64,000 nucleotides of DNA from a bacterium (GTDB taxonomy: Bacteria > Bacteroidota > Ignavibacteria > UBA10030). The notes beneath the pieces are model-generated. The model was given only the letters and a program-made list of their open reading frames with translations, did no database searches and had not been told where the DNA came from. The translations under genes were made by a program, and so were the position numbers. Numbering within the stretch: the first letter of the stretch is position 1; each line of letters starts with the position of its first letter. Where the stretch lies: assembly GCA_043803945.1 (NCBI GenBank), contig JAZDJN010000035.1, positions 32,001 through 96,000 of the forward strand, read 5' to 3'. Below, one piece after another: positions 6,821 through 62,887 of the stretch.

Positions 6821-6861
6821 CTCAGGTGTTTTTCCTACCAAACTCAGGTGTTTACCTGAGG
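6821..6861 (+). promoter_or_regulatory. Island-associated motif copy 1 (CAGGTGTTT x2, 22 bp apart; core TCAGGTGTTTACCTGA)
   Basis: Exact 16-mer at 6844-6859 shared with 34174-34189 and 62848-62863; function unknown. Confidence 0.75.
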
Positions 6862-7025
6862 CAAAATCAGTCAATTTTCGCTAATGACATACTTGAGTTA
6901 TTGATTCTCTTGGTAAACATCTCTACTATCCTGCTACCGTGCTGGGGATTCCGTAGGGAAGGATGAAGTGTACTTCCGAAGGAGTAAACTGTGCAACTCC
7001 TTAGAACGAAAAATACTTTGAATGA

Positions 7026-7139
7026 GACATTCGAACTGTCCAGGCGCTTCTGCACAGCGACGTCAAAACGACGATGATCTATGCCCATGTGTTCAATCGG
7101 GGACCGGCCGGAGTTCGCAGTCCCGTAGACGGACTCTGA
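7026..7139 (+). pseudogene. intI: Integron integrase C-terminal remnant (37 aa)
   Basis: Translates [37 protein letters not shown], the IntI box II/C-terminus; Gly of LLGH missing and in-frame TGA immediately upstream. Confidence 0.9.
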
Positions 7140-7165
7140 ACCCATGAAGGAAGATGTAATATACC

Positions 7166-7322
7166 GATCCGCATAAGCTGCCGTGATAAACCGCTGGACA
7201 GACAAAAAGTGATCGAAAACAAAGTGGTTAATATACCTTCAGCAAAAAATCCTAATGCATGTTTTATACACACAAACCAGAAACTCCGCATCTTATGCGG
7301 ATCAATCTAATTATTGTTATAC
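7166..7322 (+). other. attI-like region
   Basis: 12-bp inverted repeat GATCCGCATAAG (7166) / CTTATGCGGATC (7292) and core G/TTATAC at 7316-7322 where cassette 1 begins. Confidence 0.65.
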
Positions 7323-7442
7323 CGCTTGCGCATTTACAGAAGCTAGCTTTTCATTGCAGGACAGCTTTTATTGAATATTTAAATGTATCGACATGTAAAG
7401 AAATAACTGAATAAATCACTTTTACTACAGTCTCGTTAGCAT

Positions 7443-9095
7443 ATGAATATAAGAAAAGCTATCATCTCCAACTTTAAATGCTTTGAGGGAGACTTTTCAA
7501 TAGAGTTCAATAAGAACTTAAACATAATTGTTGGGATTAATGAGACTGGTAAATCAACCATTCTCGAGGCAATAAACCTTGCGCTTTCTGGTTGGATCTA
7601 TGGAAAGTACTTGGCAACTGAATTATCTCAATCCCTTTTCAATAGCAATACAGTTTCCAATTACTTGGACTCCGTTAATAAGGGTAATTCTGTTGAACCA
7701 CCAACAATTCTCATAGAACTATATTTCGACATCGAAGATGAATCTCTTAAGGCTGAATTCGAAGGAAATGGCAATAGCCGCAGAGAGGAAGCTTCAGGAA
7801 TTCAATTTAAGATATGCTTCAACGAACGATACAGAGACCAGTATCGCCTTTTAATTGAATCTAAGGAACCTATAAGCTCATTACCGATCGAATACTACGA
7901 TTTTGGTTGGTCAACATTCGCAAGAGATGAGACAATAACACCACGGGGGATCCCCTTCAAAGCTGCATTCATCGATTCCTCCAACACTCGACTTCAAAGT
8001 GGTTCCGATGTTTACATTTCACGAATCATTCGAGACTTTCTTTCCGAAGATTACAAGATTAAAATATCTCAAGCCCATAGAAAACTAAAAGATGTGTTCA
8101 TGGATTCTTCCTCTATCAAAGAAGTGAATAAGGAGCTCGAACAAAAACAACTTTCTGAGAAAAAGGTTGAATTGTCAATAGAAATGTCAACAAAGAACGC
8201 TTGGGAATCGAGCATAACGACGTCTTTGGACGATATTCCTTTTAGCAATATCGGAAAGGGCGAGCAATGCATGATCAAGACTAAGCTCGCGCTAAGCCAC
8301 AAGAAGGCCGTTGAAGCAAATATAATTCTACTAGAGGAGCCGGAAAATCATTTGGCACATGGCAAACTCAACGAACTCTTGAGCTTCATTAAAGAAAAGA
8401 GCCCGGAAAAGCAAGTCATAGTATCTACTCACAACAGCTTTGTCGCTAATAAACTTGGCCTTGATAACCTTATTCTCTTAAATATGGATTTAGCCACAAA
8501 GTTACGATTGCAGATTCGAATGAACGACTTGAGTGCGGAAACAAAGAGATACTTTGAAAAGCTGGCAGGCTATGATACCTTGCGGTTGATTCTGACTAGC
8601 TGTGCTATTTTGGTTGAAGGCCCATCAGACGAACTGATTGTTCAAAAGGCCTTTGCGAAACACAACAATGGGAAGCTTCCCATTGATAAAGGAATTGACG
8701 TCATCTCTGTGGGTACATCGTTTCTTAGGTTTCTAGAAATAGCCGACAAATTACGCAAACCTGTGCGGGTAGTTACTGACAACGACAGATCCTATGAGAT
8801 AAAGGTTAAGAAAAAATATAAACAATATGAGAATAGTAAAATTATCACTATTTATGCGGATAGCAATGACGATCTGAATACTTTGGAGCCACAGATCGTG
8901 CATGCAAACAAAGATCGATTGTCCGATCTGAGAACCGTACTCGGTATAGGCGAGGAAGAGTATCCTGATGAAAAGTCGATATCGGACTACATGCATGGCA
9001 ACAAGACCGAGTGCGCACTCAAGCTTTTCGAGTCTGAAAAGGATTTCATATTTCCGAATTACATACTTAGGGCAATAGGCGTGGACAATGCATAA
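7443..9095 (+). CDS. gajA: OLD-family ATP-dependent nuclease (ABC ATPase + TOPRIM), Gabija GajA-like
   Basis: GINETGKST, LLEEPENHL, STH, ILVEGPSDE, VTDND; paired with a UvrD-like gene. Confidence 0.85.
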   Translation: MNIRKAIISNFKCFEGDFSIEFNKNLNIIVGINETGKSTILEAINLALSGWIYGKYLATELSQSLFNSNTVSNYLDSVNKGNSVEPPTILIELYFDIEDESLKAEFEGNGNSRREEASGIQFKICFNERYRDQYRLLIESKEPISSLPIEYYDFGWSTFARDETITPRGIPFKAAFIDSSNTRLQSGSDVYISRIIRDFLSEDYKIKISQAHRKLKDVFMDSSSIKEVNKELEQKQLSEKKVELSIEMSTKNAWESSITTSLDDIPFSNIGKGEQCMIKTKLALSHKKAVEANIILLEEPENHLAHGKLNELLSFIKEKSPEKQVIVSTHNSFVANKLGLDNLILLNMDLATKLRLQIRMNDLSAETKRYFEKLAGYDTLRLILTSCAILVEGPSDELIVQKAFAKHNNGKLPIDKGIDVISVGTSFLRFLEIADKLRKPVRVVTDNDRSYEIKVKKKYKQYENSKIITIYADSNDDLNTLEPQIVHANKDRLSDLRTVLGIGEEEYPDEKSISDYMHGNKTECALKLFESEKDFIFPNYILRAIGVDNA

Positions 9096-10221
9096 AAACA
9101 CGTTAGTAATTGCCGCCGCTGGCTCTGGCAAGACGAGCTTTCTTGTAAATGAAGCTCGGAATATTAAGCACAAGAAAGTTCTAATTACAACCTATACTGA
9201 AGCAAACGAGGGAGAAATTATAAAAAAGTTCGCCGGCAGAATACCTGCAAACGTAACTATACAAACCTGGTTTTCTTTTCTACTCAAGCACGGTGTCAGA
9301 CCCTTTCAAAGTATTATGGATGACTCCCTACATCATGAAAAAATTGGTTTCTATTTGACAGAAAAGCAATCTGGGTTCAGATATAATACAACAAATGGAA
9401 AACCTGTGTATTGGGGGGAAAAAGATTTTATGAAGTTTTACTTCACCCGTGATTTCAGAATCTATTCAGATAAAATATCCAAGTTCATCATTGACTGCAA
9501 CAAGAAGTCAAATGGAGCCGTCATTAATAGAGTAAGTCGAGTATTTTCACATATTTTTGTTGACGAAGTACAAGATCTGGCTGGCTGGGAATTGGAATTG
9601 CTAAAATTGTTATTTACTTCAAGGTCCACTGTCCTCCTGGTTGGGGATCCAAGGCAAGTCACCTATTTGACTCACCATTCTCCTAAGTATGACAAGTATA
9701 GAGAAGGAATGATTAAAGACTTTGTAAGGACTGAATGCAACAAGCGAGAACAGATTTGCGAAATAGACGAACAAAGCCTTCTCTATTCACATAGGAACAA
9801 TGAATTCATCTGCGATTTCTCTTCAGCGTTGTTTCCTGAGCATGCCCCAAGTAAACCTTGCGATTGCAGGGAATGTCGTTCGTATAACTTCGATCATCAA
9901 GGCATCTTTGCCGTCAAGCCTGCTGATGCTGGTTCCTACTTCGAAAAGTATCACCCGCAGATACTGCGATATAACAAATCACAATTTCCTGATCTTAATT
10001 TTGGAATGTCAAAAGGTTTAGGCTTCGATAGCGTTCTTATTTATCCAACAGAAAAGATAGGGAAGTATTTAACCACCGGTGATCTTAAAAGTATTGAAAC
10101 AGTACGGGCTAAATTCTATGTCGCAATAACTCGAGCGAGACAAAGTGTCGGAATAGTCTGTGATTTCAATGATAACACTAAATTTATAAGGAGAATATCG
10201 AAATACATACGGAGCAATTAA
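9088..10221 (+). CDS. gajB: Short UvrD-like helicase, Gabija GajB-like
   Basis: AAAGSGKT, DEVQD, VGDPRQ, SKGLGFD, YVAITRAR; overlaps gajA stop. Confidence 0.85.
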   Translation: MHKNTLVIAAAGSGKTSFLVNEARNIKHKKVLITTYTEANEGEIIKKFAGRIPANVTIQTWFSFLLKHGVRPFQSIMDDSLHHEKIGFYLTEKQSGFRYNTTNGKPVYWGEKDFMKFYFTRDFRIYSDKISKFIIDCNKKSNGAVINRVSRVFSHIFVDEVQDLAGWELELLKLLFTSRSTVLLVGDPRQVTYLTHHSPKYDKYREGMIKDFVRTECNKREQICEIDEQSLLYSHRNNEFICDFSSALFPEHAPSKPCDCRECRSYNFDHQGIFAVKPADAGSYFEKYHPQILRYNKSQFPDLNFGMSKGLGFDSVLIYPTEKIGKYLTTGDLKSIETVRAKFYVAITRARQSVGIVCDFNDNTKFIRRISKYIRSN

Positions 10222-10542: not shown

Positions 10543-10615
10543 TTTGCAGCTTTGCAGGATGTATTGTCGTAAACTATTCTGAAAACCAAGTCAAAGCAAC
10601 CTTGTAGGAATACTT

Positions 10616-12197: not shown

Positions 12198-12425
12198 TCA
12201 AGCGTGTATGCGTGCTTTTGCCCATTGCAATGCAGGCTTCTTTCGCTGATCTGCACAATCGCGCAGAAATAGGTTGATGAGTTTCTGGTATGGCAAATCG
12301 GTTTCTGCTGCAATTTTTTTGAAATAGTCTAATGTATCGTTTTCTATCCGAATAGTGATTTGGGTTTTTAGTCTCTTAGCGTATGGATTTCGGACGGCGT
12401 TGGTAAAATCGTAGTTTTTTCTCAT
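12198..12425 (-). CDS. brnA: BrnA-family antitoxin
   Basis: YDF..A.RNPYAKRLK.QITIR...LDYFK......PYQ.LIN..LR pattern; overlaps toxin stop. Confidence 0.85.
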   Translation of the reverse strand: MRKNYDFTNAVRNPYAKRLKTQITIRIENDTLDYFKKIAAETDLPYQKLINLFLRDCADQRKKPALQWAKARIHA

Positions 12426-27695: not shown

Positions 27696-30600
27696 CTACT
27701 TTCCAAACACATTATGTGTGAGAATACTATTCAATGAATATGTGTTCGGACCAACAAGTGAAATCATGTCTAGTGCTTCCGCCCATTCAATACTCTTTGG
27801 AAGAAATTCTTTTGCTTCTCCCAGATCCAAAAGTTGCTCCAACTCAGTTATGGCGATGTTTTCCCCACCATATTCTGCCATAGTGCTTATGATTCCCCTT
27901 GGAGTTTCAGTGATCTCTGAAAAGCCAAACATTTTATCAAGTTCCATTCTGTTAGCAGAAATCCATTCCTTCAATTTCCCACAGCACTCTTTCGAAACGA
28001 AAGTCTCCCCTTTTGTTAACTCTTGGAACTTCTTAAGTAGAGCATAAAGTTGACCTGTAATCGATTTTATCTCATTTCGTTCTTCTATTTGAAGAGCGTA
28101 GACTTCGTCATCAAGCCAATGTTTAATCGCCGATTCATTCCACCTTCTCAATGATATAACATCAAGGCTTGCTCCCCTCAGTTCGATCCACTGACTCCAC
28201 TCCTGATTAAGAATTCCCCAGAGGTGATCCGGCTCTGCTATAAACACAAAACGCAGAAAGGAGCCCCAGTTCCCAATTATGCGGATCTTCTCCTGGGCAA
28301 TTTTTATCCACTCCAGGCTCCATGGAATTTCATAGCCGATAACATAGATAGCGACACTATCTCTCGCAATTGACTTTATTTCATCAATGAATTTTCTGAA
28401 TTGAGCAACTGATTGAACTTGATCAATCATATTCACATTTGAAAAAACCCGTCCTTTAAGAAATTCGGGGAGATCATCCAGTCCATTAGCTCTGTTACCG
28501 GCAATAAGGGTTACTCCATCTTTGTTCGAAGTGATCGTGCTCAATTGGCCAACAGTCAATGGACTTCTGAACTCTCTCGCACCGGCAGGCTTGAACGCAA
28601 TACGAAAATGCGCTGGTTCATATCCTAGTTCTACTTCGCGTCGCTCTAGCAGCTTTGACGTAATTTTCTCTTCACTTCCCATCAGTCTGTAAACGTTTTG
28701 GTTTCTCAGTAGATACCCTTCAGCAGGTGTGGCTTGCAATACACCCAGACCGATCATTTCCTCTACCAGAATTTTGATTGACTCGAGCGAAGAATGTTCC
28801 TTGAATCCTTCAGGATAGAAACAAGTTGCCTGTTGCCTGATCCAATCCAGGGTGAATCCCGAGCTCATACCTAGCTCAGGATTATCCGCATACCCCTGGG
28901 CTATACTATATGCAATAACTTCATACTTGTTGTCAAGTTGAAGGGTCCAAATGAACCTGTCACTGATTTGATTTCGCAGACTGGTATTCTGAAAGGCGTC
29001 TGTGACATGTCTGCTTTCTATGATATATGGTGGACACTTTTTAGTATCGAATGGAATCTTCCTGATGTGCTGCAGCAACTGTGTGCAATATAGTTGAATA
29101 AGGCTGGGATAATAATTTGTCTGAGATAATATCCTCATTATGAGATCACTGCTACTGAACTTGTAACCAATCGCTCTCAGAGGGATTTCTACTAACTTTC
29201 TCGCTTCTATCCATTCATCATTTGAGAATAGGGGTCCGATGCAGTGAGGTTCCCCAAAGTGTGCCAGTGGATGGTTAGCCAGCGTTGTTGTTCTCAAGAC
29301 ATTGTGAAGCCCGGCGAAAACCACCTTGAATCTTCTGCTGGTATTATCCATTAGGCCCTTTAATCGCGAGGTGTAGATGAATTCTCCGGATGATTTTCCG
29401 GACTCCCGGCTTCCTTTGCCATCGATTTCCAGAAAAATGTCTGCTTCATCAAGCAGAAGTAAAATCCTCCTGTCGGTACGATCATTTAGCCATTCTTGTA
29501 TATTTTCTAGCAGGTTTTTTAATCCTGTGTTTCTTTGTACTTTTGTTGAAATGACCTGGTATTTCTTAAATTCTTCCACCAGTACTTCCCACAAATGGTC
29601 TATCGGCTGAGCCGTACCAATACCGAGGACTTTGAGATCAACATAGAGGGCAATCATACCACTTGAAGGATTGTGGAAAGTTCTCTCGATCGAGCGCAAT
29701 AGAGCTGTTTTTCCGAGCTGACGACCCCCATAGATAAAACACGATCCATGAGGATTTACGATCGCTTCGAGTTCCCTTTTTCGCCCATAGAAGATCTCAG
29801 GCGGAACAAGGCCTGCAGTTGTGGTATATGGCTCAAGATCGGTTAAAGGCAGAGTACAATCGAAGAACACTGGAAGCCTGTCACCTTTCACTGTACACAA
29901 ATAAAGAATTACTATATCATCGATGACAATATACGTTCTTCTCCCTGACCGGCTCTCCTCCGCAAGTTCCCTTCTGCGTAGTTCAGACATTCTTCCAAAC
30001 CAAAATATTATAACAGGGCCCCCGCTTCCTGCAGTTGCGACATCATTAGAGAGAATATCTGCTGTTTGGTAATTCCAGAAACAAAGAACACGGTATCTTC
30101 CATTTGCTGCAGACCCATACTGATAAGCGGGGCAACGGTTTCGGTCATTAACTGCTTCGGCCTCAGCAGCGAAGATATCCTTATTGACAACCCTCCGTTT
30201 TTCGACATTTGCAATATTTAGTCCAATCCCTTTCAGCACGTCAGACACATGGTCAACAGTTGCGAAACGGGAATTCTTCATTTCGAGCCACGCTTCAAGG
30301 AGGTTGCGTGCATCTTTTCTTTGACTCGAGGACACTCCTTCAAAGGATAATGGCCCAATATTTTCACCCCGCTCAACCAACCTAAGAAGCTTATTTCCAT
30401 TCAGTGCATCCTTTTCCAGGAATCCGTGCAGTTCGGCAATCATGGATAACATGGTTTCAAAATGAGTTTGACTGGCTTTTTCATCCGGGATAGCCTCTCC
30501 GTTTGCTGCCCTGTTTACAAAATCTTCTGCAGTAATAAGGTCACCATCTTGTAGTAATTTACTGATACGAGAAAAGCCATCACTATCAGACTTAATACCG

Positions 30601-33600
30601 ATGTCACTCATCCTTTTAATGAGACGTTCTCTTGCCTTATTTTTTTGTGTGTCGATCGTGCTTTCAATTCCATCGAGCTGTTGTATGGCTTCGGACAAAT
30701 CTTCTTTATGCTTTGAAGCTTCCGCAATAGAGTGAATATCGCGTTTGAACGAATCGTATTGATCTCCGCGGATAATATTTAATGCCATCGCATCTTCAAT
30801 TTTTGCGACGGTTCTTGTCCTTACAATTTCTTGTATAAGCATCCGGGACTTGGTGATTTCTTCATCTCGTTTTCTTCGAAGCCCTTCAGAATCAACACCC
30901 TGAATATGGAGGAATTCGACGGCATCTATCACATTACCGGAAATTGTGTGTGCATGGTCTCTTGTAGCTTGCTCGAAGGCTCTCACCCAGTCTTCTGTTC
31001 CTTCTTTTATAAGTTGCAAGAGTTTTATCAGAATCCCTTTATCATATCCCTGAACAGGTTCCCAATCAGCATTGAGAGGTAACCCTGCCAGAAGTAATTC
31101 CCCATTAAGAATCCATCGGATATAGGGCTCTTCTGGGATAAAAGGCTTGGAAGGATCGAATATTGACTTAATGTCCTCGATTGCGGAGATGGTAAGGTCA
31201 ACAGCAGATCTGGTAATTCTGGAATCAGATCCATGCTTAAACTTGGATAGTTCATCAATGCAGGGAGTACACAGATCACCCAATTCACGCTTTAATTTGT
31301 CAATTTTTTCATCAATAAATCCCCGTTGTTTCCCTGGTCTGAAATCGATAAGCCCCACCCATATTCTCGCCATTGTCGATAGATCTCTGAGATGTCTTTG
31401 GATTTGATTTGAAGCTCTCTGCACTATTGATCCACTGGAATGCACCATCGTGATGGCAGCAAAATGAGTATCGATTTCCCGCCCCAGCCATCGCTCATTT
31501 ACTAAGTCAATCGAAAAATCTTTCACAATATCAAGATGATCAAAAGCATTGTTTTCAATCGCTTCAACTATTTGATAAACTCTGTTACCTCTCTGCAACA
31601 TTCGTTTCCATGTCTTTACTCCGGGAGAGGTCACTATACCGAAACTTTGAGCTTGCTTATACCATTGCTTGACTTTGTTCCTGATATCTTCAAGTTCTTC
31701 ACGCCACTTTGTTTGATCTTTTGCGATTTTTATTACTTGTGGTTCAAGCGCAATTCCCAGGTAACCCCATTCAGCTATCCTCTGTGAAATGGTATGCAAT
31801 ATGCTTAATTGGCTGTACGATAGTTGGCTTAGAATCGCCTGAGCTCCTGTAACTGGTGCCAGCAGAGATGGGCGCAGACATGAACTTCCCCACATCAGGT
31901 TCAACGCTATTCGTGTCTTGTCGTCTTCAGCTTCAGGAAGATCTGGATTGAAATTTTCATATTCTTGCTTAAGTAATGAGGCGATATTTCCCTGGTTTGA
32001 TCCTGTATAAGGGGCAAGCAGAATCGCTTTGAAGAGAGAGGCTGATAAGGCACTGGAATTAGTTGGGAGAATCATCGCACATTGATATGCAATCCTGAAT
32101 TTTCCCTCTCCCACAAGTGCCCAGAGTAATTCGTCCAACAAACTATCTTCCGCTGCTGTGTGGTTCGGAGAGAGCATTTGTTCAGCGATTAAGGCAGAGC
32201 TTCGGTTATCGGCTCTTTTAACTTTTAATGCCTCAACGGGTTCCGGAGATTCCTGTGCCCTTATTTCCGACTTCTTTGAAGGCTTCGATTTAATTTCAGG
32301 TACGGGTGTCTTATCAGGAGCCCGATCCTCAATCGCCTGGACCTGATCTTCAATAACATTATTGGTGATCTCTCTCGGAATCTGTACAACTGTTACCGCG
32401 TCTTCTGTTTTTCTTTGATGAGAAAAGTCTCGGATCGCCGGGAGTTCAGGAAATACTATTTGATCTGGTCCTTGTTCAGCAATGACCATTCTATCCATCA
32501 TAGCAACTTCAGCGCATTCTTCTCCAAACTCTTTAGCAATCACTATTTTGAGTGCTTTACACTCATGGAATCCCAGGATTTTCTTCTCTTTGACAAGACG
32601 TATGAGACTTAAGTATGGATGCGATCCATCTACAATGCTGTTCACAATCACTTGTAAGTTGCTTGTATTTCCACTTTTAATTTCTGCCTCAAGTGTCACG
32701 ATTTTTTTCACGACCTCTTTCAGAGGTGCAAATTCAATATCAACAGTGTTTCGCAGCAAATGAAATGTTGAGAGCAATTTAAGCGCGTCAAGTCTGGTTT
32801 TCTCAAACTCAACTTCCGCCATCCTGTTTTTCCCACGTTCAAACAATAGGGCCAGATCGGCTGGAGTTTTTGCTGACAGGATCCTTTCTTTTATTTCATC
32901 ATCTACTGATGCTGAGATATCTTGCTTAATTTCCTCAAACAGTTTCAAATAACCGGATGCTAATTCCTGTAAAGCTTTAATTTCATCAGCGCTTGCTTCA
33001 CCAGCAGGCAGGGCATTTGAAATATTTATTAAATTCTTCTTTGCCAGATCTATCTTTTCCTCTACCGACTGAGCTTGTTGTGACTCCTTTTTATCATCGC
33101 CATCTTTGCCTGCTTTGTCATTAGTCAACCTGATCGGGCCCTCTTCAGCAATACTCTCCCGATCATCACCTGCTATTTCGGTAATCCCCTCTTGTTCATA
33201 ATTTACACCTTCTCCCCCGCCTTTATCATTAAACCAGCCTAAAAGAAGTGACATTAACGTGACTTCTGATTCGTCTTCCCCTTCGATAGGTTTTCCGCCT
33301 GGCCTGAAGTGCCACAATTCAGTCTCTCCCTCCTGGCATAGATCAGTATCGTTAAGAGACTTCCAAACAATCGGAGAAATTACCTTCCGAACTGAATACC
33401 CCCTTTCTTTCAGGGCTGCCTCAACTTTCAATCTTAGATTTTTCTTCACCTCCATCCACAAAGCGAGAATCCAGTTACCAAGCTGAGCATCCTCAACTAC
33501 CCTTTGTTCCATAAATTGAATTACTCTCAGCTTTGGCACCTTTCGGGCATGTGAGAATCCCGGGAAGTACCGGGAGATCCTGTCCTTATGGAGAGCCAAT

Positions 33601-33713
33601 GTCTGTGCTTGATCATATTCTACAACTGCTTTGATAATTTGGCGCAGTTTTGTCCGCGGATAAGATTCGAGAGGATTAAAGAGGTTGTCGGGGTACTGGT
33701 TATGACTTGCCAT
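27696..33713 (-). CDS. 2005-aa STAND-like P-loop NTPase with long helical N-terminal region
   Basis: PY...FYGRKREL, Walker A YGGRQLGKT, Walker B LLLLDEAD, YYPSLIQ; second degenerate P-loop LIAGNRANG. Confidence 0.85.
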   Translation of the reverse strand: MASHNQYPDNLFNPLESYPRTKLRQIIKAVVEYDQAQTLALHKDRISRYFPGFSHARKVPKLRVIQFMEQRVVEDAQLGNWILALWMEVKKNLRLKVEAALKERGYSVRKVISPIVWKSLNDTDLCQEGETELWHFRPGGKPIEGEDESEVTLMSLLLGWFNDKGGGEGVNYEQEGITEIAGDDRESIAEEGPIRLTNDKAGKDGDDKKESQQAQSVEEKIDLAKKNLINISNALPAGEASADEIKALQELASGYLKLFEEIKQDISASVDDEIKERILSAKTPADLALLFERGKNRMAEVEFEKTRLDALKLLSTFHLLRNTVDIEFAPLKEVVKKIVTLEAEIKSGNTSNLQVIVNSIVDGSHPYLSLIRLVKEKKILGFHECKALKIVIAKEFGEECAEVAMMDRMVIAEQGPDQIVFPELPAIRDFSHQRKTEDAVTVVQIPREITNNVIEDQVQAIEDRAPDKTPVPEIKSKPSKKSEIRAQESPEPVEALKVKRADNRSSALIAEQMLSPNHTAAEDSLLDELLWALVGEGKFRIAYQCAMILPTNSSALSASLFKAILLAPYTGSNQGNIASLLKQEYENFNPDLPEAEDDKTRIALNLMWGSSCLRPSLLAPVTGAQAILSQLSYSQLSILHTISQRIAEWGYLGIALEPQVIKIAKDQTKWREELEDIRNKVKQWYKQAQSFGIVTSPGVKTWKRMLQRGNRVYQIVEAIENNAFDHLDIVKDFSIDLVNERWLGREIDTHFAAITMVHSSGSIVQRASNQIQRHLRDLSTMARIWVGLIDFRPGKQRGFIDEKIDKLKRELGDLCTPCIDELSKFKHGSDSRITRSAVDLTISAIEDIKSIFDPSKPFIPEEPYIRWILNGELLLAGLPLNADWEPVQGYDKGILIKLLQLIKEGTEDWVRAFEQATRDHAHTISGNVIDAVEFLHIQGVDSEGLRRKRDEEITKSRMLIQEIVRTRTVAKIEDAMALNIIRGDQYDSFKRDIHSIAEASKHKEDLSEAIQQLDGIESTIDTQKNKARERLIKRMSDIGIKSDSDGFSRISKLLQDGDLITAEDFVNRAANGEAIPDEKASQTHFETMLSMIAELHGFLEKDALNGNKLLRLVERGENIGPLSFEGVSSSQRKDARNLLEAWLEMKNSRFATVDHVSDVLKGIGLNIANVEKRRVVNKDIFAAEAEAVNDRNRCPAYQYGSAANGRYRVLCFWNYQTADILSNDVATAGSGGPVIIFWFGRMSELRRRELAEESRSGRRTYIVIDDIVILYLCTVKGDRLPVFFDCTLPLTDLEPYTTTAGLVPPEIFYGRKRELEAIVNPHGSCFIYGGRQLGKTALLRSIERTFHNPSSGMIALYVDLKVLGIGTAQPIDHLWEVLVEEFKKYQVISTKVQRNTGLKNLLENIQEWLNDRTDRRILLLLDEADIFLEIDGKGSRESGKSSGEFIYTSRLKGLMDNTSRRFKVVFAGLHNVLRTTTLANHPLAHFGEPHCIGPLFSNDEWIEARKLVEIPLRAIGYKFSSSDLIMRILSQTNYYPSLIQLYCTQLLQHIRKIPFDTKKCPPYIIESRHVTDAFQNTSLRNQISDRFIWTLQLDNKYEVIAYSIAQGYADNPELGMSSGFTLDWIRQQATCFYPEGFKEHSSLESIKILVEEMIGLGVLQATPAEGYLLRNQNVYRLMGSEEKITSKLLERREVELGYEPAHFRIAFKPAGAREFRSPLTVGQLSTITSNKDGVTLIAGNRANGLDDLPEFLKGRVFSNVNMIDQVQSVAQFRKFIDEIKSIARDSVAIYVIGYEIPWSLEWIKIAQEKIRIIGNWGSFLRFVFIAEPDHLWGILNQEWSQWIELRGASLDVISLRRWNESAIKHWLDDEVYALQIEERNEIKSITGQLYALLKKFQELTKGETFVSKECCGKLKEWISANRMELDKMFGFSEITETPRGIISTMAEYGGENIAITELEQLLDLGEAKEFLPKSIEWAEALDMISLVGPNTYSLNSILTHNVFGK

Positions 33714-34171
33714 ATAGCTTGAACTCCCATAAATGAAAGAAAGACGTGATATCTTTCTTTCGCTAATGTGACCTTATCTTAATCGCGTTATAATGATCTT
33801 GCAAAAAAAAAAAGAACTGATGAAAGGTTTTACCTTTATCTGTCGAATACCGGTTACTCTAACAAGCTTATCCCTGACAACTGCAATAATGAAATATGGA
33901 TATTGCCTATTTGTAAAGAAAAATACTTCGCTTATTGGCTCAAAAACAAAAAAACCTCCTTCATCGCATTCGCGAATCCAAAGGTTTCAATTTCTCTTTC
34001 TTGGAAGATATAAGGAGCGCCACGGTTTACTCCTTCGGAAGCACACTTAATCCTCCTCCACGGAATGCCCCAGCACGGTAATTAAGATTTGACTGTTGGC
34101 AAGAAGGTATAGATGTTTGCTAATGAAAACAATAGCAAGAATGTGCAATTGGCGATAATGAGCTAAATTTA

Positions 34172-34213
34172 CCTCAGGTAAACACCTGAAAATGGCATGG
34201 AAAACACCTTAGG
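34172..34213 (-). promoter_or_regulatory. Island-associated motif copy 2
   Basis: TCAGGTAAACACCTGA at 34174-34189, second AAACACCT 22 bp away. Confidence 0.75.
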
Positions 34214-34256
34214 TGTGATTTTTCATTGTCCACGAGATACAGAATAAATTTGACAG

Positions 34257-55278: not shown

Positions 55279-56451
55279 CTATACCCCTTTAAGGATACTT
55301 TCAACAGCCCCCTTGAAATTGCTCTTAGGATATTTACTCAACAGCATTCTGAACTTTTCTGCGGCGAGATCTTTTTTACCATCTCCTAAATAGGACTGAC
55401 CTACAAAGAAGAGTATGCCATCTTTATTGGGATAGTCTGGGTAGATCCTTTCCAATTTGGCGAACTGATCGATTGCATCACCATATTTCTTCAGCTCAAA
55501 AAGGCATACCCCCAGTCGGTATCCGGCAATAGATGAATAGGATTCAGAAGGATACAACGATAATAATGTCTTTAGCTCTTCAATAGCTTTTTCCCTTTCT
55601 CCTAATTGAAGATAAGTAGATGCTAGTTCATACTGGGCTTTTACTCTCTGATCGCTCGTAGCTGTTTTTGATAAGGCTAATTGGTAATTCTGAATTGCTT
55701 TCGTTAACCTTTCCTTGATTAGCACAAACACCTTATTGTGTTCTTTCTTATCCATTTTGAAATCAGTTGCCTTGAAATGAGTATAATAACGTCCCAATTC
55801 AACATATGTATCTGCAAGTAACTCGCTTGAAGGATTGTTACGGACAAATTGTTCAAGATGAGAAATTCCCTCATCGTACCTACTCAATTGTCCATATGCT
55901 TTTCCAGTGAGAAAATAGGATTTCTCTCTCAAATCAGATTTCGACGATTTTTGAGAAATGATGGCATATTGATTTATTGCTTCCTGATACTTCCCTAATT
56001 GGTAGTATGAATGACAGATGATTTCTTTTGTATCGTCGACATATTTGCTTCCAGGATTATTTACGATGAATTTTTGAGCCTCATCCAAAGCATTTTGATC
56101 CTGGCGCAGAGCCGAGTACGATCGCATCAGGTATACTTGAGCCTCGTCCCCTTTCTGATGCTTGTTGTACGTCGAGAGAAATACTTTATATTCGTTGACT
56201 GCTTGACTATAGACACGCTCATCGTAAAAGAGCATGGCAATCGAGATCTGTGTTTCAGCCGCTGCAGGAGTACCTAATTGCTTTTTCAACTGCTGCCTTA
56301 AGGGTTCAATCTTTGCTTCATCAATTTTCGGTTCGATGAATACAAGAACCTTATTTCCAACTTTGGCAGTCGGAAAGGTTGGCACATCCTGCGATACCGA
56401 TAACGACACAAAGACGATGGATAGGCTGAGTATAAGTATTATGTTCTTCAT
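55279..56451 (-). CDS. Secreted TPR protein (BamD/YfiO/CpoB-like repeats)
   Basis: Signal peptide; repeated A...Y....YP.S TPR units. Confidence 0.85.
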   Translation of the reverse strand: MKNIILILSLSIVFVSLSVSQDVPTFPTAKVGNKVLVFIEPKIDEAKIEPLRQQLKKQLGTPAAAETQISIAMLFYDERVYSQAVNEYKVFLSTYNKHQKGDEAQVYLMRSYSALRQDQNALDEAQKFIVNNPGSKYVDDTKEIICHSYYQLGKYQEAINQYAIISQKSSKSDLREKSYFLTGKAYGQLSRYDEGISHLEQFVRNNPSSELLADTYVELGRYYTHFKATDFKMDKKEHNKVFVLIKERLTKAIQNYQLALSKTATSDQRVKAQYELASTYLQLGEREKAIEELKTLLSLYPSESYSSIAGYRLGVCLFELKKYGDAIDQFAKLERIYPDYPNKDGILFFVGQSYLGDGKKDLAAEKFRMLLSKYPKSNFKGAVESILKGV

Positions 56452-56467
56452 TTCATTTTCCTCCGCG

Positions 56468-57214
56468 TTACTTCGTCAATAACATTTTTTTTGAACTCTT
56501 GTACTTACTTGTGATAAGATGGCAGATGTATATCCCCGTCGGCATTTGTTGCCCGAGTAGATTTCTTCCATTCCATGCTACTCGATGAAAGCCGGCCCGG
56601 TACTCACTATTCACAAGTGTCTTTGCTTCCCTTCCCAGCAGATCGAAGACTCTTAAAGTTACCAGACCAGGCTCAGGCAGATCGAATTGGATAATAGTTG
56701 AAGGATTGAACGGATTGGGGTAGTTTTGTGCTAGAGCATATTTTGTTGGTATCGCTACCGATTGATCAGCTTCTTCAATCTGATCTTCAATCACTGATTC
56801 ACCATCTTTTGAGAGTGATGTCTGTAATCCACTACCGGGTGATGCAAGATATATATTGAACTTTCCAATGATTGAATTAGACGAAATGAGCTCCAATGTT
56901 GCGTTGGTACTATGGACATCATTGAGAACATTAAATGGAAGTACCAATGAGGAGTTAGAGGCTCTTCCATAAGAATAGTTACCACGATACTCTGATACTA
57001 TGGAGGTTGCATCGCCTCCAGGCACTAGCCAGGATGGATTACTCTTACCAAAACGCAACTTGAGATCTGAATAAGATGCCCTAGAAAGGTTCAGAATCTG
57101 AATTGTAATCTTGTTTTCACCTTTTGAAGTATTCACCGAAGCCTGAGAAAATGAGACAAAAGGAACTGAGATTAATACGAGTAAGACTATAAATATTAGC
57201 TCTTTCATTGTCAT
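56468..57214 (-). CDS. Secreted protein with T9SS type A / FlgD-Ig C-terminal domain
   Basis: Signal peptide; LAQNYPNPFNPST.I.F...FDLLGRE...WNG...GIY...KKMLL.K. Confidence 0.85.
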   Translation of the reverse strand: MTMKELIFIVLLVLISVPFVSFSQASVNTSKGENKITIQILNLSRASYSDLKLRFGKSNPSWLVPGGDATSIVSEYRGNYSYGRASNSSLVLPFNVLNDVHSTNATLELISSNSIIGKFNIYLASPGSGLQTSLSKDGESVIEDQIEEADQSVAIPTKYALAQNYPNPFNPSTIIQFDLPEPGLVTLRVFDLLGREAKTLVNSEYRAGFHRVAWNGRNLLGQQMPTGIYICHLITSKYKSSKKMLLTK

Positions 57215-57247
57215 CTCCAGATAGTAGTTTCTTTGAATGAATTACCA

Positions 57248-60200
57248 TTACATTTCCATTGTCATCATACCGGGAATGATCGGTGAAAAGGAACTCTCAC
57301 ATGATTCATCAACCAGTGTTACACGATACTCCCAAATATCGATTGAATTCTCTAGAGGTGGATAATCCAAATAAGAACTGCTCAAAGCACTTACTGCACC
57401 GATGAATTCAAAAGCATTGTTTGGATAATTCCATGCAACAGGACGACGATAGATCCTGTAATACCATGGCGAACCGGGGCAACCAACATTTTCCCAATAC
57501 ACTTCGATACTATTGACCAGATTTCCACTTGCGCTTCCCCAGGTCGGTGCAGGTGGTGGATTTGTAGCAATGAAGGAAGCATAAATCGTATTATTGGATT
57601 GAACATTATAGAAAGTATAGCCTTCAACATTTCCCTGTGGGGATCCATTAACGAATACATTTTTGACCCGCGAAGTCCAGTTTTCAGAATAAATTGAGAA
57701 TGTTTTATTTTGTCCTTCTACCACTTGCACAGAACCACTTGGATCTATATAACCACCTGATCCTTGAACACTTGCATTGATTGTATAGATACGATTAAAG
57801 TTCGCTGTTATGTCTTTGGAACCATCCATTGTAACAATAATAGATGACTGTGATCCACTTGCACTTCCACTCCAATTGCTGAATGTATAACCGGTGGCCA
57901 CTGTCGCAGTCAATGTAACCTGCTCACCATGGGTGTATTGCGTCTTATTCGGTGATTTCGAAACCGTGCCTCCTCCCGAGGGATTTATAGAAATACTCAA
58001 TGCATACGAGTTCTGGGTAAAGTTTGCTGTAATATTTTTCTCACTGTCCATGGTAACCACTATTTGTGACTGTGATCCACTTGCACTTCCACTCCAATTG
58101 CTGAATGTATAACCGGTGGCCGCTGTCGCAGTCAATGTAACCTGCTCACCATGGGTGTATTGCGTCTTATCCGGTGATTTCGAAACCGTGCCTCCTCCCG
58201 AAAGATTTATCTCGATATTTAATGAATAATTAGGATACTGAGTTGTAAAGTTCCTCACTTCCGACCATGCACTACTATCTGTACTCTTGATCGCTTGAAT
58301 CCTCCAAAAGTACTGTGTGCTATAATCAAGCCCATTGAGATAATAACTATTTGAGCCACACGGTTGATCTCTTAACACACTCTCGTTTGTAAATGTTGAA
58401 CTCGTCGCGACCTGAACGCGATAAGACGTTGCTTCAGTTACTGCACTCCATTGAAGTGTGATATCTGTCGGTAAATCGGATCCTCCATTATCTGGATTCG
58501 AAAGATCAGGAGGTGGCAAAGTAATCTTAAAGAGCTTGCCTTCACCCGGAGGAAAAGCGCTTGTAAAAGTTCCGTTTGGATTCAGAACCGCTTTTGAACA
58601 ATCTTCTACATTGACTATTGATTTCTTTGATGTATAGTCAAAATATAGTGTAATATTTCTATTGTCTGATGGATGCGTCCGCCGATTAACCACATAGAAG
58701 TACTGTGTGTTGTCTCTTAGAAAATTCGCTGTTTCAACATACCTATCTTCACCAGTAACTCCAGTCGAACAGTTTGTAATTGTATTGGTATTATCCCAAA
58801 CACCAGCCGTTGATTGATCATGCCAGCCTTTTGCGCCACGCCAAGTCAACGATACTAAGGTCGGTCCAAGGATTGATATTCTTTGATTTAATGCTCTGAT
58901 AGCCTCCCATTTATTTCCGCCATAAGAAAGATTCTCTGGATAGACAATTCTTTCAGATCCATTACGATCGAGAATCCCAATTCCCCACGGTTTACCCACC
59001 TCTACTGGAGTCGATTGATAGAGGAAATAATTGATTCCTTTGACTCCATATGCCAATGCTAGGTTTGTCATCATGCGGAGTTCTTGGAGTGTCGGTTCAC
59101 GATTTGAACCCCCATCATTTGGATTTGGCTCATACCATTCATGTGCTTGAAGTGTAATCCAAAATGGAACCCCTTGCTCATTTGAAACAAGAATATTTGG
59201 CTTAAGACAACGATCAATAAATTCACCTTGTACACCATCGGCATTCCATCCAGCATTCATCCCGTTTTGTAGCCGATTGAAGTAATCTGCTTCACCTGGG
59301 AGCGGATAATCTGATTTGATAGGATAATTGTCAGTTAGATTTTGCTTATTTCGGGTCCATAAAATGTTTCTTCTCACATAAGTAGCGATAGTATCAGGAT
59401 AATCACTCTTATGCCAAGCCATATTATAATGCAATCCTGTTTTGCCCGATGAGCCTACATTATTCTGTATTATTTGTTCTGTATGTCCAACAGCATGCCA
59501 TTCAGCCATATTAGGTTCGTCGCGAATTTTAAACCTAGCTAATGCAGAGTATGGTTTAAACAAATTCACCTCATTATTTATTAAGGAATCATATTGACCA
59601 TTAAAGATCGAGTTACCGTCCTCATCATCAATAAATATCGCGTCGAGATAACAACTGACCAACCCATGCCAGTATACTTGATAGTCATAGGGAGTGGTTG
59701 ATGTAAAACGATTTTTTTTATCAAACTCCCCTGTCGTATACGTTACATTATCGACTTCAATTAATGGTGAAGCCATTCCTTCGGGAGGCGGTGGTGCCTG
59801 GGGAGCTACAGCGGTTTTAAAAAATTTTAGAGCAGTTATTGTTTGATATGAACCATCGTTTGTAAAACGATTGGCATAAACAATCGAATCCTTAACGTTT
59901 GTTCCACACACAACTTTCACCGTAACAACAGGTGTTTGGTCTATAGTAGTGCCCGATGGTAGGCGCATTCTGACTTTTACAAAATATGGTACTGAATCAG
60001 TTTGTTCCTTGTTTGTTATTAGTCCTTTGGCTAAGAATCCTGAGTCTGGATGAACGTTAATGAGAGCGCTTCTTGCATTATTTTGATTCTGTAGATTATC
60101 TGGAAATTTCGATGCAATCTGTCCGTCATTCATCAGATCACCAATCAAATTACTCTGTGAATATTGTTGAGCATTCTCTGGGTGATATTCCCACCGCTGG

Positions 60201-60535
60201 CCGCTTGTTGCATCGCGTGAAATAATGCGCCGATCAATTACCAGTTTTATACCTTGAGAGGCAGCATAATCCAATGCATTTTTCGTGTCGCGTTCACTAT
60301 ATTGGCCTTGAAAGGTGATCATTCCCCAATTCAATCCCAGGTTTTTTATTTTTTGAAAGTCTGCCGAGGTCAGCGGATTTGTATCACCATTCGGTTTATT
60401 AAGCCATTCTGCCCCAATAATAAACTCTGTTTGTTGCGCTTGCCCCCTAGTTATACTTAGGCCTAAAAAAGTTACTAGTAAAAGTAGCAGACGCCCAATG
60501 TATCCTTTTTGTATAGGCATATTATTTTCCTCCAC
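57248..60535 (-). CDS. Secreted multidomain protein: glycoside-hydrolase-like barrel, FN3, two InlB-B/Flg_new-type repeats, FN3
   Basis: Signal peptide; DEP...YPI...EPT..E.R....ALAYG.KGI.YF; L.W..V..A..Y.VQV; VTLTAT...GYTFSNWSG x2. Confidence 0.75.
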   Translation of the reverse strand: MEENNMPIQKGYIGRLLLLLVTFLGLSITRGQAQQTEFIIGAEWLNKPNGDTNPLTSADFQKIKNLGLNWGMITFQGQYSERDTKNALDYAASQGIKLVIDRRIISRDATSGQRWEYHPENAQQYSQSNLIGDLMNDGQIASKFPDNLQNQNNARSALINVHPDSGFLAKGLITNKEQTDSVPYFVKVRMRLPSGTTIDQTPVVTVKVVCGTNVKDSIVYANRFTNDGSYQTITALKFFKTAVAPQAPPPPEGMASPLIEVDNVTYTTGEFDKKNRFTSTTPYDYQVYWHGLVSCYLDAIFIDDEDGNSIFNGQYDSLINNEVNLFKPYSALARFKIRDEPNMAEWHAVGHTEQIIQNNVGSSGKTGLHYNMAWHKSDYPDTIATYVRRNILWTRNKQNLTDNYPIKSDYPLPGEADYFNRLQNGMNAGWNADGVQGEFIDRCLKPNILVSNEQGVPFWITLQAHEWYEPNPNDGGSNREPTLQELRMMTNLALAYGVKGINYFLYQSTPVEVGKPWGIGILDRNGSERIVYPENLSYGGNKWEAIRALNQRISILGPTLVSLTWRGAKGWHDQSTAGVWDNTNTITNCSTGVTGEDRYVETANFLRDNTQYFYVVNRRTHPSDNRNITLYFDYTSKKSIVNVEDCSKAVLNPNGTFTSAFPPGEGKLFKITLPPPDLSNPDNGGSDLPTDITLQWSAVTEATSYRVQVATSSTFTNESVLRDQPCGSNSYYLNGLDYSTQYFWRIQAIKSTDSSAWSEVRNFTTQYPNYSLNIEINLSGGGTVSKSPDKTQYTHGEQVTLTATAATGYTFSNWSGSASGSQSQIVVTMDSEKNITANFTQNSYALSISINPSGGGTVSKSPNKTQYTHGEQVTLTATVATGYTFSNWSGSASGSQSSIIVTMDGSKDITANFNRIYTINASVQGSGGYIDPSGSVQVVEGQNKTFSIYSENWTSRVKNVFVNGSPQGNVEGYTFYNVQSNNTIYASFIATNPPPAPTWGSASGNLVNSIEVYWENVGCPGSPWYYRIYRRPVAWNYPNNAFEFIGAVSALSSSYLDYPPLENSIDIWEYRVTLVDESCESSFSPIIPGMMTMEM
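57846..58200. repeat. Near-identical intragenic duplication, period 222 bp
   Basis: GACTGTGATCCACTTGCACTTCC... at 57846 and 58068. Confidence 0.9.
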
Positions 60536-60575
60536 TTGAAAATAGATCCCACTTAAGGTATCTTGTAAATAAAAA

Positions 60576-60667
60576 GCCCTCAGTGCCCTTGATCAGGGCT
60601 GAACTATCACTCTCTTGGCGGGGAGTATTTTTCATCCTGTCATGAAATTGTTGACAGGACTGGGGGC
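60576..60667 (-). promoter_or_regulatory. Structured leader / attenuator-like element
   Basis: Closing stem GCCCTCAGT/ACTGGGGGC enclosing three hairpins, followed by TTTTT on the minus strand. Confidence 0.45.
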
Positions 60668-60831
60668 ATTTAATTATTAGAACATCCGAATATTCAATAC
60701 ACTAGAATTTTAGCATACCTTCTTGCGTGAAAAGCAATCCGGTAATTTGCATGCTTTTCGTGTCAACGTTTCTATTCAGATGCTCTATTGTTTTATTTGA
60801 TCAAAATCAAAACACTTTTATTTTTCCTTTT

Positions 60832-62472
60832 CTATCTAACAAGTATCGCCTTCTTCGTTTCTTGTATTTGTTGATCAACAGTTAAGGTGTAATAGTAAAC
60901 ACCGGATGAAACCTTATTTCCTACGGCATCACTTCCGTTCCATGGTACTCGATAATCCCCAGATTCTTGCACTTTTTCAACAAGCCTTATTATTTCTCTT
61001 CCCAAAGAATCGAATATTACCAATTTTACAAGACCTCTCTTTATAATCGCGTATTCAATTGTGGTAGATGGATTAAAAGGATTGGGGTAGTTTTGACGGA
61101 GCTTAAAGTCTGTTGGAAAATCACCTAACTCCTCAACAAGGGTAAACCAAGGATCTCCACTAAGAACCACGACATACCCATCCATTGAGTATGCACCATA
61201 ATCTGCTGGGACGGTTGTGCCAAAATCATTCACACCATCACCGTTGATATCTCCAAGAGATGATGTTCTATCAAAAGCAGTACTTCCCACTAATCCTCTT
61301 GTTCGAATTCCTACTCGCTGCTGGGATAGTACTTTCCCACCTAGATAGACAAATATTGCTACACCGGGTGCCCCGACTACATAACATGGAACAGCAAAAT
61401 CATTTATGCCATCCTTATTGACATCTCCGATATCCGTTGCATAATGGCTGAAACGAAATGCTGTTGTGTCCGGACTCTTGAGAATAAAGCTAGGCTTCCA
61501 ATCGACTGTATCCTGTCTGCCAAAAAACAATAATAAACTGATTAATCTATTACCCAAACATGAAATATCCATTACCCCATCATTATTTACATCTAAAAGA
61601 TTAAAATATGGCAAGTTTTCAATATTTAATTCTTTCAATCCAAGTCTTTGATACGCGTGGCTCTTTGAGAATGTCCAATCTTTCCTCCCTAAAAATATTT
61701 CTAATGACCCCTTGAGTGTGTCTCCAGTAAGAGATCTTGAATCTGATCCTATACACAAATCTTTCAATCCATCCCCGTTTATGTCGCCTATTTTCACTTG
61801 TGTGCCAAACATTGATTTTATCTTTTCCCCTATTGCCGTAACATCGGGTGCAGTACTAAATATTGGTTTTCCGAAATACACATATACCTTTCCTTCTAAC
61901 CTACCGTAATTGGGTGCACCAATTACCAAGTCATTATACCCATCAGCATTGATATCTCCTATATCCATCGCCGAACCAAAACGGGTTTCACTTAATACTC
62001 CACCGGGCAACTCAGCTGGAATAGCCAATCCTGGTATCGTGTCCAATACCAACGGATTCGAAATTGTTGGTATTCGTCCAAAATATATAAAGACTGTATC
62101 GGGAGCATAGGAAGTATATATACCTTGATGGACAATAAGATCCTTCTTACCATCTCCATTCAAGTCTCCCATCACCATGTTATCGCCACCTGAGAGAATG
62201 ATGTCGGGCTTGTCATCGAGTATTCTAGGACCACCAAAATAGATAAAGGTTTTACCAATCCCCTGAGCACTCACTGCGAAATCCGGCCAACCATCTCCAT
62301 TGATATCTCCCAGTCCGAGAATACCAGTACCAAGCATCATCTTCGATCCAGGCGTACCTTCTACTTCTAGAATGGTCTTTAGATATTGTGCGTTGACATG
62401 ACCAGTTGATAAAATAATCAGAACTATTATTGTTAATATATATCCAACTCGATCGAATAATTGTTTCATCAT
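60832..62472 (-). CDS. FG-GAP repeat beta-propeller protein with T9SS type A C-terminal domain
   Basis: Repeated GDINGDG..D units; LRQNYPNPFNPST C-terminus; signal peptide. Confidence 0.9.
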   Translation of the reverse strand: MMKQLFDRVGYILTIIVLIILSTGHVNAQYLKTILEVEGTPGSKMMLGTGILGLGDINGDGWPDFAVSAQGIGKTFIYFGGPRILDDKPDIILSGGDNMVMGDLNGDGKKDLIVHQGIYTSYAPDTVFIYFGRIPTISNPLVLDTIPGLAIPAELPGGVLSETRFGSAMDIGDINADGYNDLVIGAPNYGRLEGKVYVYFGKPIFSTAPDVTAIGEKIKSMFGTQVKIGDINGDGLKDLCIGSDSRSLTGDTLKGSLEIFLGRKDWTFSKSHAYQRLGLKELNIENLPYFNLLDVNNDGVMDISCLGNRLISLLLFFGRQDTVDWKPSFILKSPDTTAFRFSHYATDIGDVNKDGINDFAVPCYVVGAPGVAIFVYLGGKVLSQQRVGIRTRGLVGSTAFDRTSSLGDINGDGVNDFGTTVPADYGAYSMDGYVVVLSGDPWFTLVEELGDFPTDFKLRQNYPNPFNPSTTIEYAIIKRGLVKLVIFDSLGREIIRLVEKVQESGDYRVPWNGSDAVGNKVSSGVYYYTLTVDQQIQETKKAILVR

Positions 62473-62847
62473 TAAACACCTACCAGGTCAACAAATCACT
62501 TGAGAAACGATACATAGCTTGACATTTGTAAGTCCATATTTCAATCATTATTGTCCGAGCGCTCTTTTCAGAAGAAAATAATTTATTCATTCTTCTAGAT
62601 TGTGAGCTTATGTCTTTATCCTTGTTGGATTCTATTATGTGTTTGCAGTTGGATGAAAGAAGGAGAACGGAAAGGATCAGTAGAATATAAGATTCATAGA
62701 CCTGTCCGCAATAAAGATGGCAGTTCAGGTTCGTACCTTCAACAAAGTTGCTCCTCTTTACAGTCTCTTCTTTCTTCACGCGAATCAAACGGAGTACAAC
62801 TCGCTATGGTGCTGGAAGAGGGTAGAAATAAAACTATTTATTGTCAA

Positions 62848-62887
62848 TCAGGTAAACACCTGAAAAATGGAAGAAAAACACCTGAGG
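62848..62887 (-). promoter_or_regulatory. Island-associated motif copy 3
   Basis: TCAGGTAAACACCTGA at 62848-62863, second AAACACCTGAGG 22 bp away. Confidence 0.75.

Follow-up and report, generated by a model that had tools for sequence, protein, structure and literature searches.

ComA of Bacillus subtilis, a regulator of the NarL/FixJ-LuxR type with a tetrahelical helix-turn-helix (HTH) domain, binds as a dimer to a canonical site in which two hexamers are inverted around a 4-nt spacer, and its promoters contain extra degenerate recognition elements nearby that are needed for activation (PMC4797271). In the sections of that study drawn on here, the ComA box is placed just upstream of the RNA-polymerase site and the direct regulon is small (PMC4797271). 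Judged by its architecture, the ComA box appears to be the closest described site to the element reported here, a box of ~40 bp present in three copies in a 64-kb stretch of bacterial DNA (the window; C35:32001-96000 of a 5.54-Mb genome, G000, in 118 contigs). As in the ComA sites covered by those sections, the box has two inverted hexamers, a 4-nt spacer and a degenerate element near them, and the regulator whose gene it adjoins on another contig, C44, belongs to the same HTH superfamily (PMC4797271). It differs from them in its half-sites, which are TCAGGT/ACCTGA instead of TTGCGG, and in its weaker unit, which is a whole degenerate copy of the site lying 22 bp farther from the gene, whereas that of ComA lies downstream of the canonical site (PMC4797271). 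The regulator here also differs in being paired with a HisKA_3 kinase bearing propeller, PAS, and GAF domains, and its binding to the box is a prediction. From sequence and gene context, we estimate a probability of roughly 0.6 that the box is the operator of this NarL/FixJ-type regulator, reused in the genome as a portable promoter module.

Reuse of promoters, including putative mobile promoters, has been described in prokaryotes, where upstream regions of high similarity before non-homologous genes rewire their regulation (PMC3575422). The present genome resembles the cases in the part of that work used here, as one upstream module stands before unrelated genes (PMC3575422). It differs from them in that the reused piece carries a response-regulator-type box and, in half of the copies, a gene resembling that of a small RNA (sRNA). 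Response regulators driving multi-copy sRNA genes are exemplified by GacA with RsmX/Y/Z and by LuxO with Qrr1-5, in which a palindromic box lies upstream of paralogous genes of ~100–150 nt, each with its own terminator, a layout similar to that of the sRNA-like element described below. A string search of the literature for 10-mers of the box gave, among the matches listed, primers or unrelated eukaryotic work and no description of it.

An earlier note on this DNA had reported the same 16-mer at the head of three gene sets. Pattern search of the window recovered all three exact copies, at 6844-6859 on the reverse strand and at 34174-34189 and 62848-62863 on the forward strand, and no fourth match at up to two mismatches in the 64 kb. 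The number of matches expected in the window is 0.02, and three or more were obtained in none of 100 shuffles. The 16-mer, TCAGGTAAACACCTGA, is a perfect palindrome with the arms TCAGGT/ACCTGA, i.e., a 6-4-6 inverted repeat with a 4-nt spacer. In all three copies, it is followed by 14 nt and then by ACACCT(G/T)AG, and direct reading confirmed that the ACACCT half-site described in the earlier note is exact in 3/3 copies at a distance of 22 bp. This second unit can best be viewed as a degenerate version of the entire 16-mer, which retains the GG, AAAC, and ACCTGA positions but has a weaker left arm. Box 1 thus described spans 6821..6859 (−), and its degenerate unit, at the 22-bp step, ends in ACACCTGAG (6821-6829); in box 2 (34174..34212, +), the second unit ends in ACACCTTAG (34204-34212); and in box 3 (62848..62886, +), which is without the sRNA-like element, the second unit again ends in ACACCTGAG (62878-62886). 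The palindrome/second-unit pairs were also recovered by an inverted-repeat search of the window as I1–I3. Folding of 111 nt of DNA around each site gave a stem of only 6–7 bp, with z values of −0.72, −1.63, and −0.67 against shuffles. The distances from the 16-mer to the first main gene were 584 bp at site 1 (gajA, start 7443), 461 bp at site 2 (an open reading frame [ORF] of 2005 aa, start 33713), and 376 bp at site 3 (a 546-aa ORF, start 62472), in agreement with the ~380–580 bp noted earlier; at site 3, a 102-aa ORF begins only 60 bp off. The common orientation reported for the three sites also held, the gene being transcribed away from the palindrome side at 3/3 of them.

A search of the rest of the host genome, as the earlier note had suggested, revealed nine further copies, all on other contigs, so that the box extends beyond the phage-like region of the window. 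The 16-mer occurs in seven exact copies and two with one mismatch, and the reversed control pattern gave no match. A search allowing three substitutions, combined with reading of the flanks, added C4:39838 and C91:72426 (two changes each) and C25:43428 (three changes), all with the second unit, and the other matches with two to three mismatches in the genome are without it. The family comprises 12 members, seven with the perfect 6-4-6 palindrome and the remaining ones with one to three changes. A position weight matrix (PWM) was built from 11 copies, leaving out the C99 copy for its 5-nt insertion. These 11 scored 43–70 bits, a range that is circular for the copies used as input; the next best genome site reached 13.4 bits, the shuffled genome gave nothing above 12 bits, and no tail of weaker sites was seen in the genome. 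All 12 copies lie in intergenic DNA, and in 11 of them the gene facing the palindrome runs away from the box, 59–584 bp off; the exception is the C13 copy, where an oppositely directed insertion sequence (IS) transposase gene lies 440 bp away. The opposite flank holds a gene of the same direction in at least 10 copies, which places the box between two co-oriented genes, 8–340 bp past the stop of the upstream one in at least 10/12 copies. The 3 kb on the regulated side have a mean GC content of 0.432, whereas all 3-kb windows of the genome together average 0.466, and sets of 12 windows drawn at random in a permutation test had so low a mean at a frequency of ~1e-4. A tRNA gene lies within 1.5 kb of 3/12 copies, and the site 3 and C13 copies share ~15–30 bp of flank on both sides.

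The link to a regulator is provided by the copy on C44, where the genes are ordered as sensor kinase, regulator, box, and receiver-only gene. The kinase (1430 aa) contains Reg_prop propeller repeats and PAS, GAF, HisKA_3, and HATPase_c domains. The NarL/FixJ-type regulator (249 aa) consists of Response_reg and GerE domains, and its gene stops at L011:5890; the box (L011:5978-6013) is placed 88 bp after this stop and 81 bp before the gene of the 150-aa receiver-only protein (start L011:6094). The closest paralogue of this regulator in its own genome is merely 41% identical, which counts in favor of the assignment.

The same unit was found near related regulator genes in other organisms. Scanned with a 21-base tandem pattern, genome_contigs yielded 14 loci, where ~1–2 were estimated by chance under equal base frequencies, metagenome_contigs eight, and viral_contigs none. 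Probable chance matches (L032 and L037, in low-complexity repeats of CTGAT type; L036, within a long ORF) and duplicates (L026, the same as L025; L039–L041 and L043–L045, near-identical to L034) were set aside from the foreign counts. Many foreign loci carry two to four tandem units with a 22–23-bp step, and among the remaining ones the neighboring genes are often signaling genes. In a Rhodoferax metagenome-assembled genome (MAG; locus L035), a gene for a GerE-type regulator 55–57% identical to that of C44 ends 60 bp before the box, and it is the sole match at E ≤ 1e-45 in that genome. In loci of Bacteroidota type (L028/L042), the box occupies the gap between a 43–45% identical regulator gene and a second regulator gene. 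At L024, it precedes a string of RsbR-like STAS genes that is closed, 3.5 kb downstream on the same strand, by a 45% identical regulator. Linkage of the box to GerE-type regulator genes is thus present at C44 and at these foreign loci, with regulators 43–57% identical. The recognition helix KTVETHR is common to the C44 regulator, the L035 regulator, and the L028 fragment. In a second Rhodoferax MAG (L027), four tandem units lie just before a receiver-only gene whose product is 35% identical (E 7e-27) to that of C44, and at L029 a kinase-receiver fragment is found upstream of the box. As in the genome under study, the palindrome-side gene is transcribed away from the box in 9/9 informative foreign loci. 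Five foreign genomes searched whole carry the unit mainly at one locus each, indicating that its spread to 12 loci is peculiar to the present genome. In the loci of Chloroflexia/Ktedonobacterales type (L030, L031, L033, L034, and L039–L045), the box comes after a hairpin resembling a terminator and a purine-rich stretch that is conserved, and tandem repeats of ~18-bp step follow it in those of Ktedonobacterales type; no regulator gene was found within the DNA fetched for these loci.

We consider it quite probable that the box is a cis-regulatory box of some kind. In the mechanism proposed, the phosphorylated 249-aa regulator, partnered with the HisKA_3 kinase, would recognize the 16-mer together with its partner 22 bp away. 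A first dimer would occupy the perfect 6-4-6 palindrome and a second one the degenerate unit, two helical turns farther from the gene and on the same face of the DNA, and the two dimers together would switch a promoter predicted to adjoin the palindrome, by activation or by repression, in response to a signal presumably received by the kinase. The ancestral target may be the receiver-only gene that comes next after the regulator gene. From there, the ~40-bp box would have been copied before at least 11 other gene sets, six copies standing ahead of the ~190-bp sRNA-like gene, and its targets would be mostly low-GC accessory DNA, including Gabija and a giant nucleoside triphosphatase (NTPase) inside the phage-like region. 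The suggestion in the earlier note of an operator co-regulating the cargo is thereby favored by context, i.e., the adjoining NarL/FixJ-type gene here and in other phyla, the ComA-like 6-4-6 form, and the fixed orientation. The regulator, however, belongs to a two-component system of the host instead of one of phage cargo, and non-mobile genes are among the predicted targets.

Several results weigh against this assignment. The 12 boxes form a discrete, spacer-conserved family that looks copied rather than independently selected, unlike the graded sites usual in regulons. The exact tandem pattern was present in 0/40 relatives of other genera, and the exact box in none of 19 regulator loci retrieved from relatives. 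Among the 40 relatives, only two, G028 and G009, have a regulator with over 55% identity to that of C44. The G028 regulator is 58% identical and has the same KTVETHR helix, yet different tandem palindromes lie behind its gene, and the G009 regulator locus has another palindrome, G5-T3-C5. In these two relatives, the architecture of the module is conserved and the sequence of the box is changed; identity of the helix does not predict the box. The G028 palindromes (L047, G028:C4) are of the AAGG..CCT type with a 23-bp step and are situated between the regulator gene and a similar receiver-only gene. Two genomes that carry the box, G043 and G044, gave no regulator match at E ≤ 1e-45, and in G041 the regulator match is on a different contig from the box; all three are MAGs that may be incomplete. 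A scan with the sigma-70 consensus, which may not be that of the host, listed no promoter at either of the first two sites, and its matches at site 3 lay elsewhere or ran in the opposite direction. By eye, TTGACA directly adjoins the palindrome at site 3 (there on the gene side) and at C13, with TAnnnT 17 nt farther on, below the threshold of the scan, and TAnTGn, likewise read by eye and not listed by the scan, lies 22–23 nt past the palindrome in most copies.

The first reading offered in the earlier note makes the box a terminus of, or a recombination site in, a non-autonomous element that loads 7–10-kb cargo into the phage. Three of the 12 boxes share a 56-kb stretch of phage-like and accessory DNA, the cargo is low in GC, an integron-integrase gene is cut off next to the module at site 1, and one copy lies beside a tyrosine integrase and tRNA-Lys, all of which speaks for such capture. 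This reading is nevertheless very improbable, as nine copies lie elsewhere, some of them before ordinary genes (of the enolase family, or for a receiver, a His-biosynthesis-family protein, and an aspartokinase), and the geometry is not that of paired ends: sites 1 and 2 diverge and the two copies on C4 converge. The check for a co-occurring recombinase found a tyrosine integrase beside one copy only and none that recurs, and viral_contigs held no match to the pattern. A 4-nt spacer is, in addition, short for the core of a tyrosine-recombinase site. An origin as a transposon end or the end of a miniature inverted-repeat transposable element (MITE) was rejected on the same inconsistent pair geometry and because alignments show no relation between the flanks outside the box. 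The integron recombination sites attC are imperfect palindromes of 57–141 nt (R″-L″...L′-R′) that fold as a long single-strand hairpin. The box resembles them, and attI, as a repeated site between co-oriented unrelated genes with an integrase remnant near; it differs in having no long imperfect palindrome, only the 6–7-bp stem of the DNA fold, and in being present where there is no integrase, and was rejected as an attC site. An attC array with an intact integrase was likewise rejected, for just a 38-codon remnant exists at site 1 and the genome has no TIGR02249 match above the family cut-off. The remnant, moreover, runs in the direction of the genes and is truncated by the sRNA-like element, rather than standing divergent beside attI.

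Among regulatory alternatives, the box might be the operator of another protein (a LytTR-type response regulator, an Xre-type repressor, or a phage repressor), with the NarL-type neighbor incidental. LytTR-type response regulators bind direct repeats with a step of ~21–22 bp, to which the 22-bp direct-repeat step corresponds; Xre-type HTH genes lie beside the C4:39838 copy, and two foreign genomes with the box lack a close regulator match. We regard this as unlikely because three lineages besides its own genome have the box next to a GerE-type regulator gene, no LytTR or Xre gene recurs beside the annotated copies, and the unit is itself a 6-4-6 inverted repeat typical of GerE-type dimers, as far as the ComA account used here describes them (PMC4797271). 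Somewhat less likely still is a dispersed selfish or neutral repeat (like a MITE, a repetitive extragenic palindromic [REP] element, or a promoter fragment) with no regulatory role at most sites. The discrete family with its conserved spacer and large score gap to the next site would suit it, as would the flanks shared over differing lengths (a ~170-bp promoter-plus-RNA module in six copies, ~15–30 bp in site 3 and C13), the enrichment of copies in low-GC DNA, and the three copies within 1.5 kb of a tRNA gene. Against it are the small number of copies, just 12, without visible terminal inverted repeats or target duplications (the latter judged by eye), their strict orientation to the downstream gene, and the occurrence of the same units beside homologous regulator genes in distant phyla, mostly at one locus per genome. 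The position of the box shortly after the stop of a co-oriented gene in at least 10/12 copies, and a palindrome able to form a 6–7-bp hairpin, could point to an RNA-level element, namely, a 3′-end hairpin or terminator of the upstream gene. This is the least likely of the alternatives weighed: no T-run follows the palindrome on either strand, a terminator scan of the three window sites listed no palindrome and had its sole match in the second unit of site 2, the palindrome folds no better than shuffled sequence does, and the tandem units and the link to the regulator gene are left unexplained. Reading the 22-bp repeat as a promoter of the extracytoplasmic function (ECF) type was rejected because its transcription would be antisense to the flanking genes.

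The gene sets downstream of the boxes are diverse. Those of the window are unrelated to each other, as the earlier note had stated. Box 1 precedes the Gabija genes gajA (7443-9095) and gajB (9088-10221; together 7443..10221, +), with family matches at E 2e-201 for GajA and 5e-131 for GajB. The first gene downstream of box 2, in the phage-like block, is the 2005-aa ORF (27696..33713, −), which has weak P-loop NTPase matches (AAA_22) and is followed by ORFs of 380 and 327 aa, both without a family. From the ORF list and family matches, the string downstream of box 3 (55279..62788, −) comprises the 102-aa ORF, the 546-aa FG-GAP/CHU_C protein, a 1095-aa repeat protein, a 248-aa protein with the type IX secretion system (T9SS) sorting domain Por_Secre_tail, and a 390-aa TPR protein. 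Outside the window, the C44 copy is followed by the genes for the receiver-only response regulator, a His-biosynthesis-family protein, a PfkB kinase, and an aspartokinase. The C26 copy precedes ORFs of 429 and 239 aa without family and a gene for a metallo-beta-lactamase-fold protein. An enolase-superfamily protein is encoded downstream of the C99 copy (tRNA-Pro 0.5 kb away), a BNR/sortilin protein downstream of the C103 copy (tyrosine integrase and tRNA-Lys upstream, 1.4 kb), and a methyladenine-glycosylase-like protein downstream of C4:44684 (tRNA-Met 80 bp away). C4:39838 heads genes for a Cas4-like PD-(D/E)XK nuclease, an HTH_17 protein, and a DrmD-like SNF2 helicase (E 2.5e-202), with an Xre-type HTH gene on the other side. 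The C91 copy precedes a gene of the FGE-sulfatase family, and the C25 copy one for a caspase-PEGA protein, with a WD40-caspase gene upstream. The C13 copy has no co-oriented ORF of at least 60 aa downstream; a Sigma70_r2 gene lies upstream and the IS transposase gene is opposite.

In six copies (sites 1 and 2, C99, C103, C4:44684, and C25), ~170 bp more are shared on the gene side. The sequence involved, the sRNA-like element of ~190 nt, is a family of its own with at least 11 copies in the genome, five of which occur without the box (C99:18631-18811, C99:24999-25094, C114:18545-18715, C81:15978-16140, and C15:40447-40618). Its layout is TTGAyT, 17 nt, TACnTT, and then a conserved body of ~110 nt, and a long hairpin with a T-run closes it in 8/11 copies. 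The full element at site 2 (33944..34136, −) shows the promoter-like hexamers, the ~110-nt conserved body, and the hairpin with T-run at ~33944-33989. RNAalifold, applied to the seven best-aligned of the eight terminator-bearing copies, gave a fold of −22.5 kcal/mol with a nested 5′ stem and the terminator hairpin. Rfam yielded no match at the gathering score across the whole window and, at E ≤ 5, none in 33850-34300. In relatives, only the terminator-like 45–50 nt of the element recur (8/40), and the body was not found in any of the 40. Small-ORF frames, compared by eye, are not conserved between copies. By these features, the element may be a multi-copy sRNA gene or leader, with the regulator-dependent box upstream in six places. 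It differs from the Gac/Rsm and LuxO/Qrr systems in the five of 11 copies without the box, in matching nothing in Rfam, and in its genome, where CsrA (PF02599) was not found; as no CsrA/RsmA gene was found there, a role as a Csr-type sponge RNA is unlikely.

At site 1, the element is truncated (6897..7022, +): the promoter-like start and the conserved body are kept, and the terminator is replaced by the C-terminal remnant of an integron-type tyrosine integrase of ~38 codons (7023..7136, +), joined directly to it. The remnant corresponds to TIGR02249 positions 277-315 (E 9e-12), confirming the truncated integron integrase that had been placed ~165 bp from the 16-mer. The element loses its terminator exactly where the remnant begins; this junction is a local rearrangement scar and not attI. 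Other TIGR02249-like matches in the genome, partial or complete and all under the family cut-off, are located at C41:1569-2315, C65:24486-25291, C5:7680-8489, C45:13792-14076, and C70:58758-59042, two of them being identical N-terminal fragments on separate contigs.

The phage-type genes of the window encode a Gp77 adaptor, a tail fiber, a head protein, a methyltransferase, and a ligase, and site 2 sits inside this block. The three gene sets have GC contents of 0.39–0.43, the phage-like backbone 0.44–0.46, and the genome 0.466; the low values fit with acquired DNA. The Gp77-like protein had no relative in viral_contigs, a 465-aa protein of the phage region had no match among 60 relatives, and the 64-kb window contains no tRNA gene. 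Between the Gabija block and the phage-like genes lies a BrnT-type ribonuclease toxin domain of a type II toxin–antitoxin system (12422-12733, −), and between the phage-like block and the T9SS-cargo genes an IS-type transposase (HTH_29 and rve_3; 54125-55195, +). An ORF of 4423 aa (34843-48114, −), unlike its surroundings in GC content (0.50) and AT skew (+0.2), consists of numerous degenerate repeats that recur every 114 bp (38 aa) and has no PHROG family match. A tandem array at 4863-5134 contains five to six units of 48 bp, each with a 16-bp palindrome of the type GTCTC-N-CCGG-N-GAGAC, which recurs singly at 51060-51089, 46 kb off, beside head and tail genes. This set looks like a second, separate set of operators or iterons, possibly phage replication or repressor sites.

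A broader proposal, which we put forward only tentatively and as a whole, is that a host two-component regulon has been extended by copying its regulator-dependent promoter, with or without the small-RNA gene, before acquired genes. The targets would include Gabija, the Cas4-like nuclease with the DrmD-like helicase, the caspase-domain proteins, and the giant NTPase of the prophage; the propeller-PAS-GAF kinase would sense an environmental signal that switches anti-phage defense and prophage cargo; and the operator–regulator pair would be old, common base for base to at least four phyla. The analysis speaks against a new DNA-capture system and points to an undescribed multi-copy small-RNA-like element. 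If the regulator assignment is true, an operator would be named for an uncharacterized NarL/FixJ subfamily that recurs in several phyla, and the genome would offer a testable case in which acquired genes, among them an anti-phage system and prophage cargo, have been put under resident signaling by means of a copied operator and promoter.

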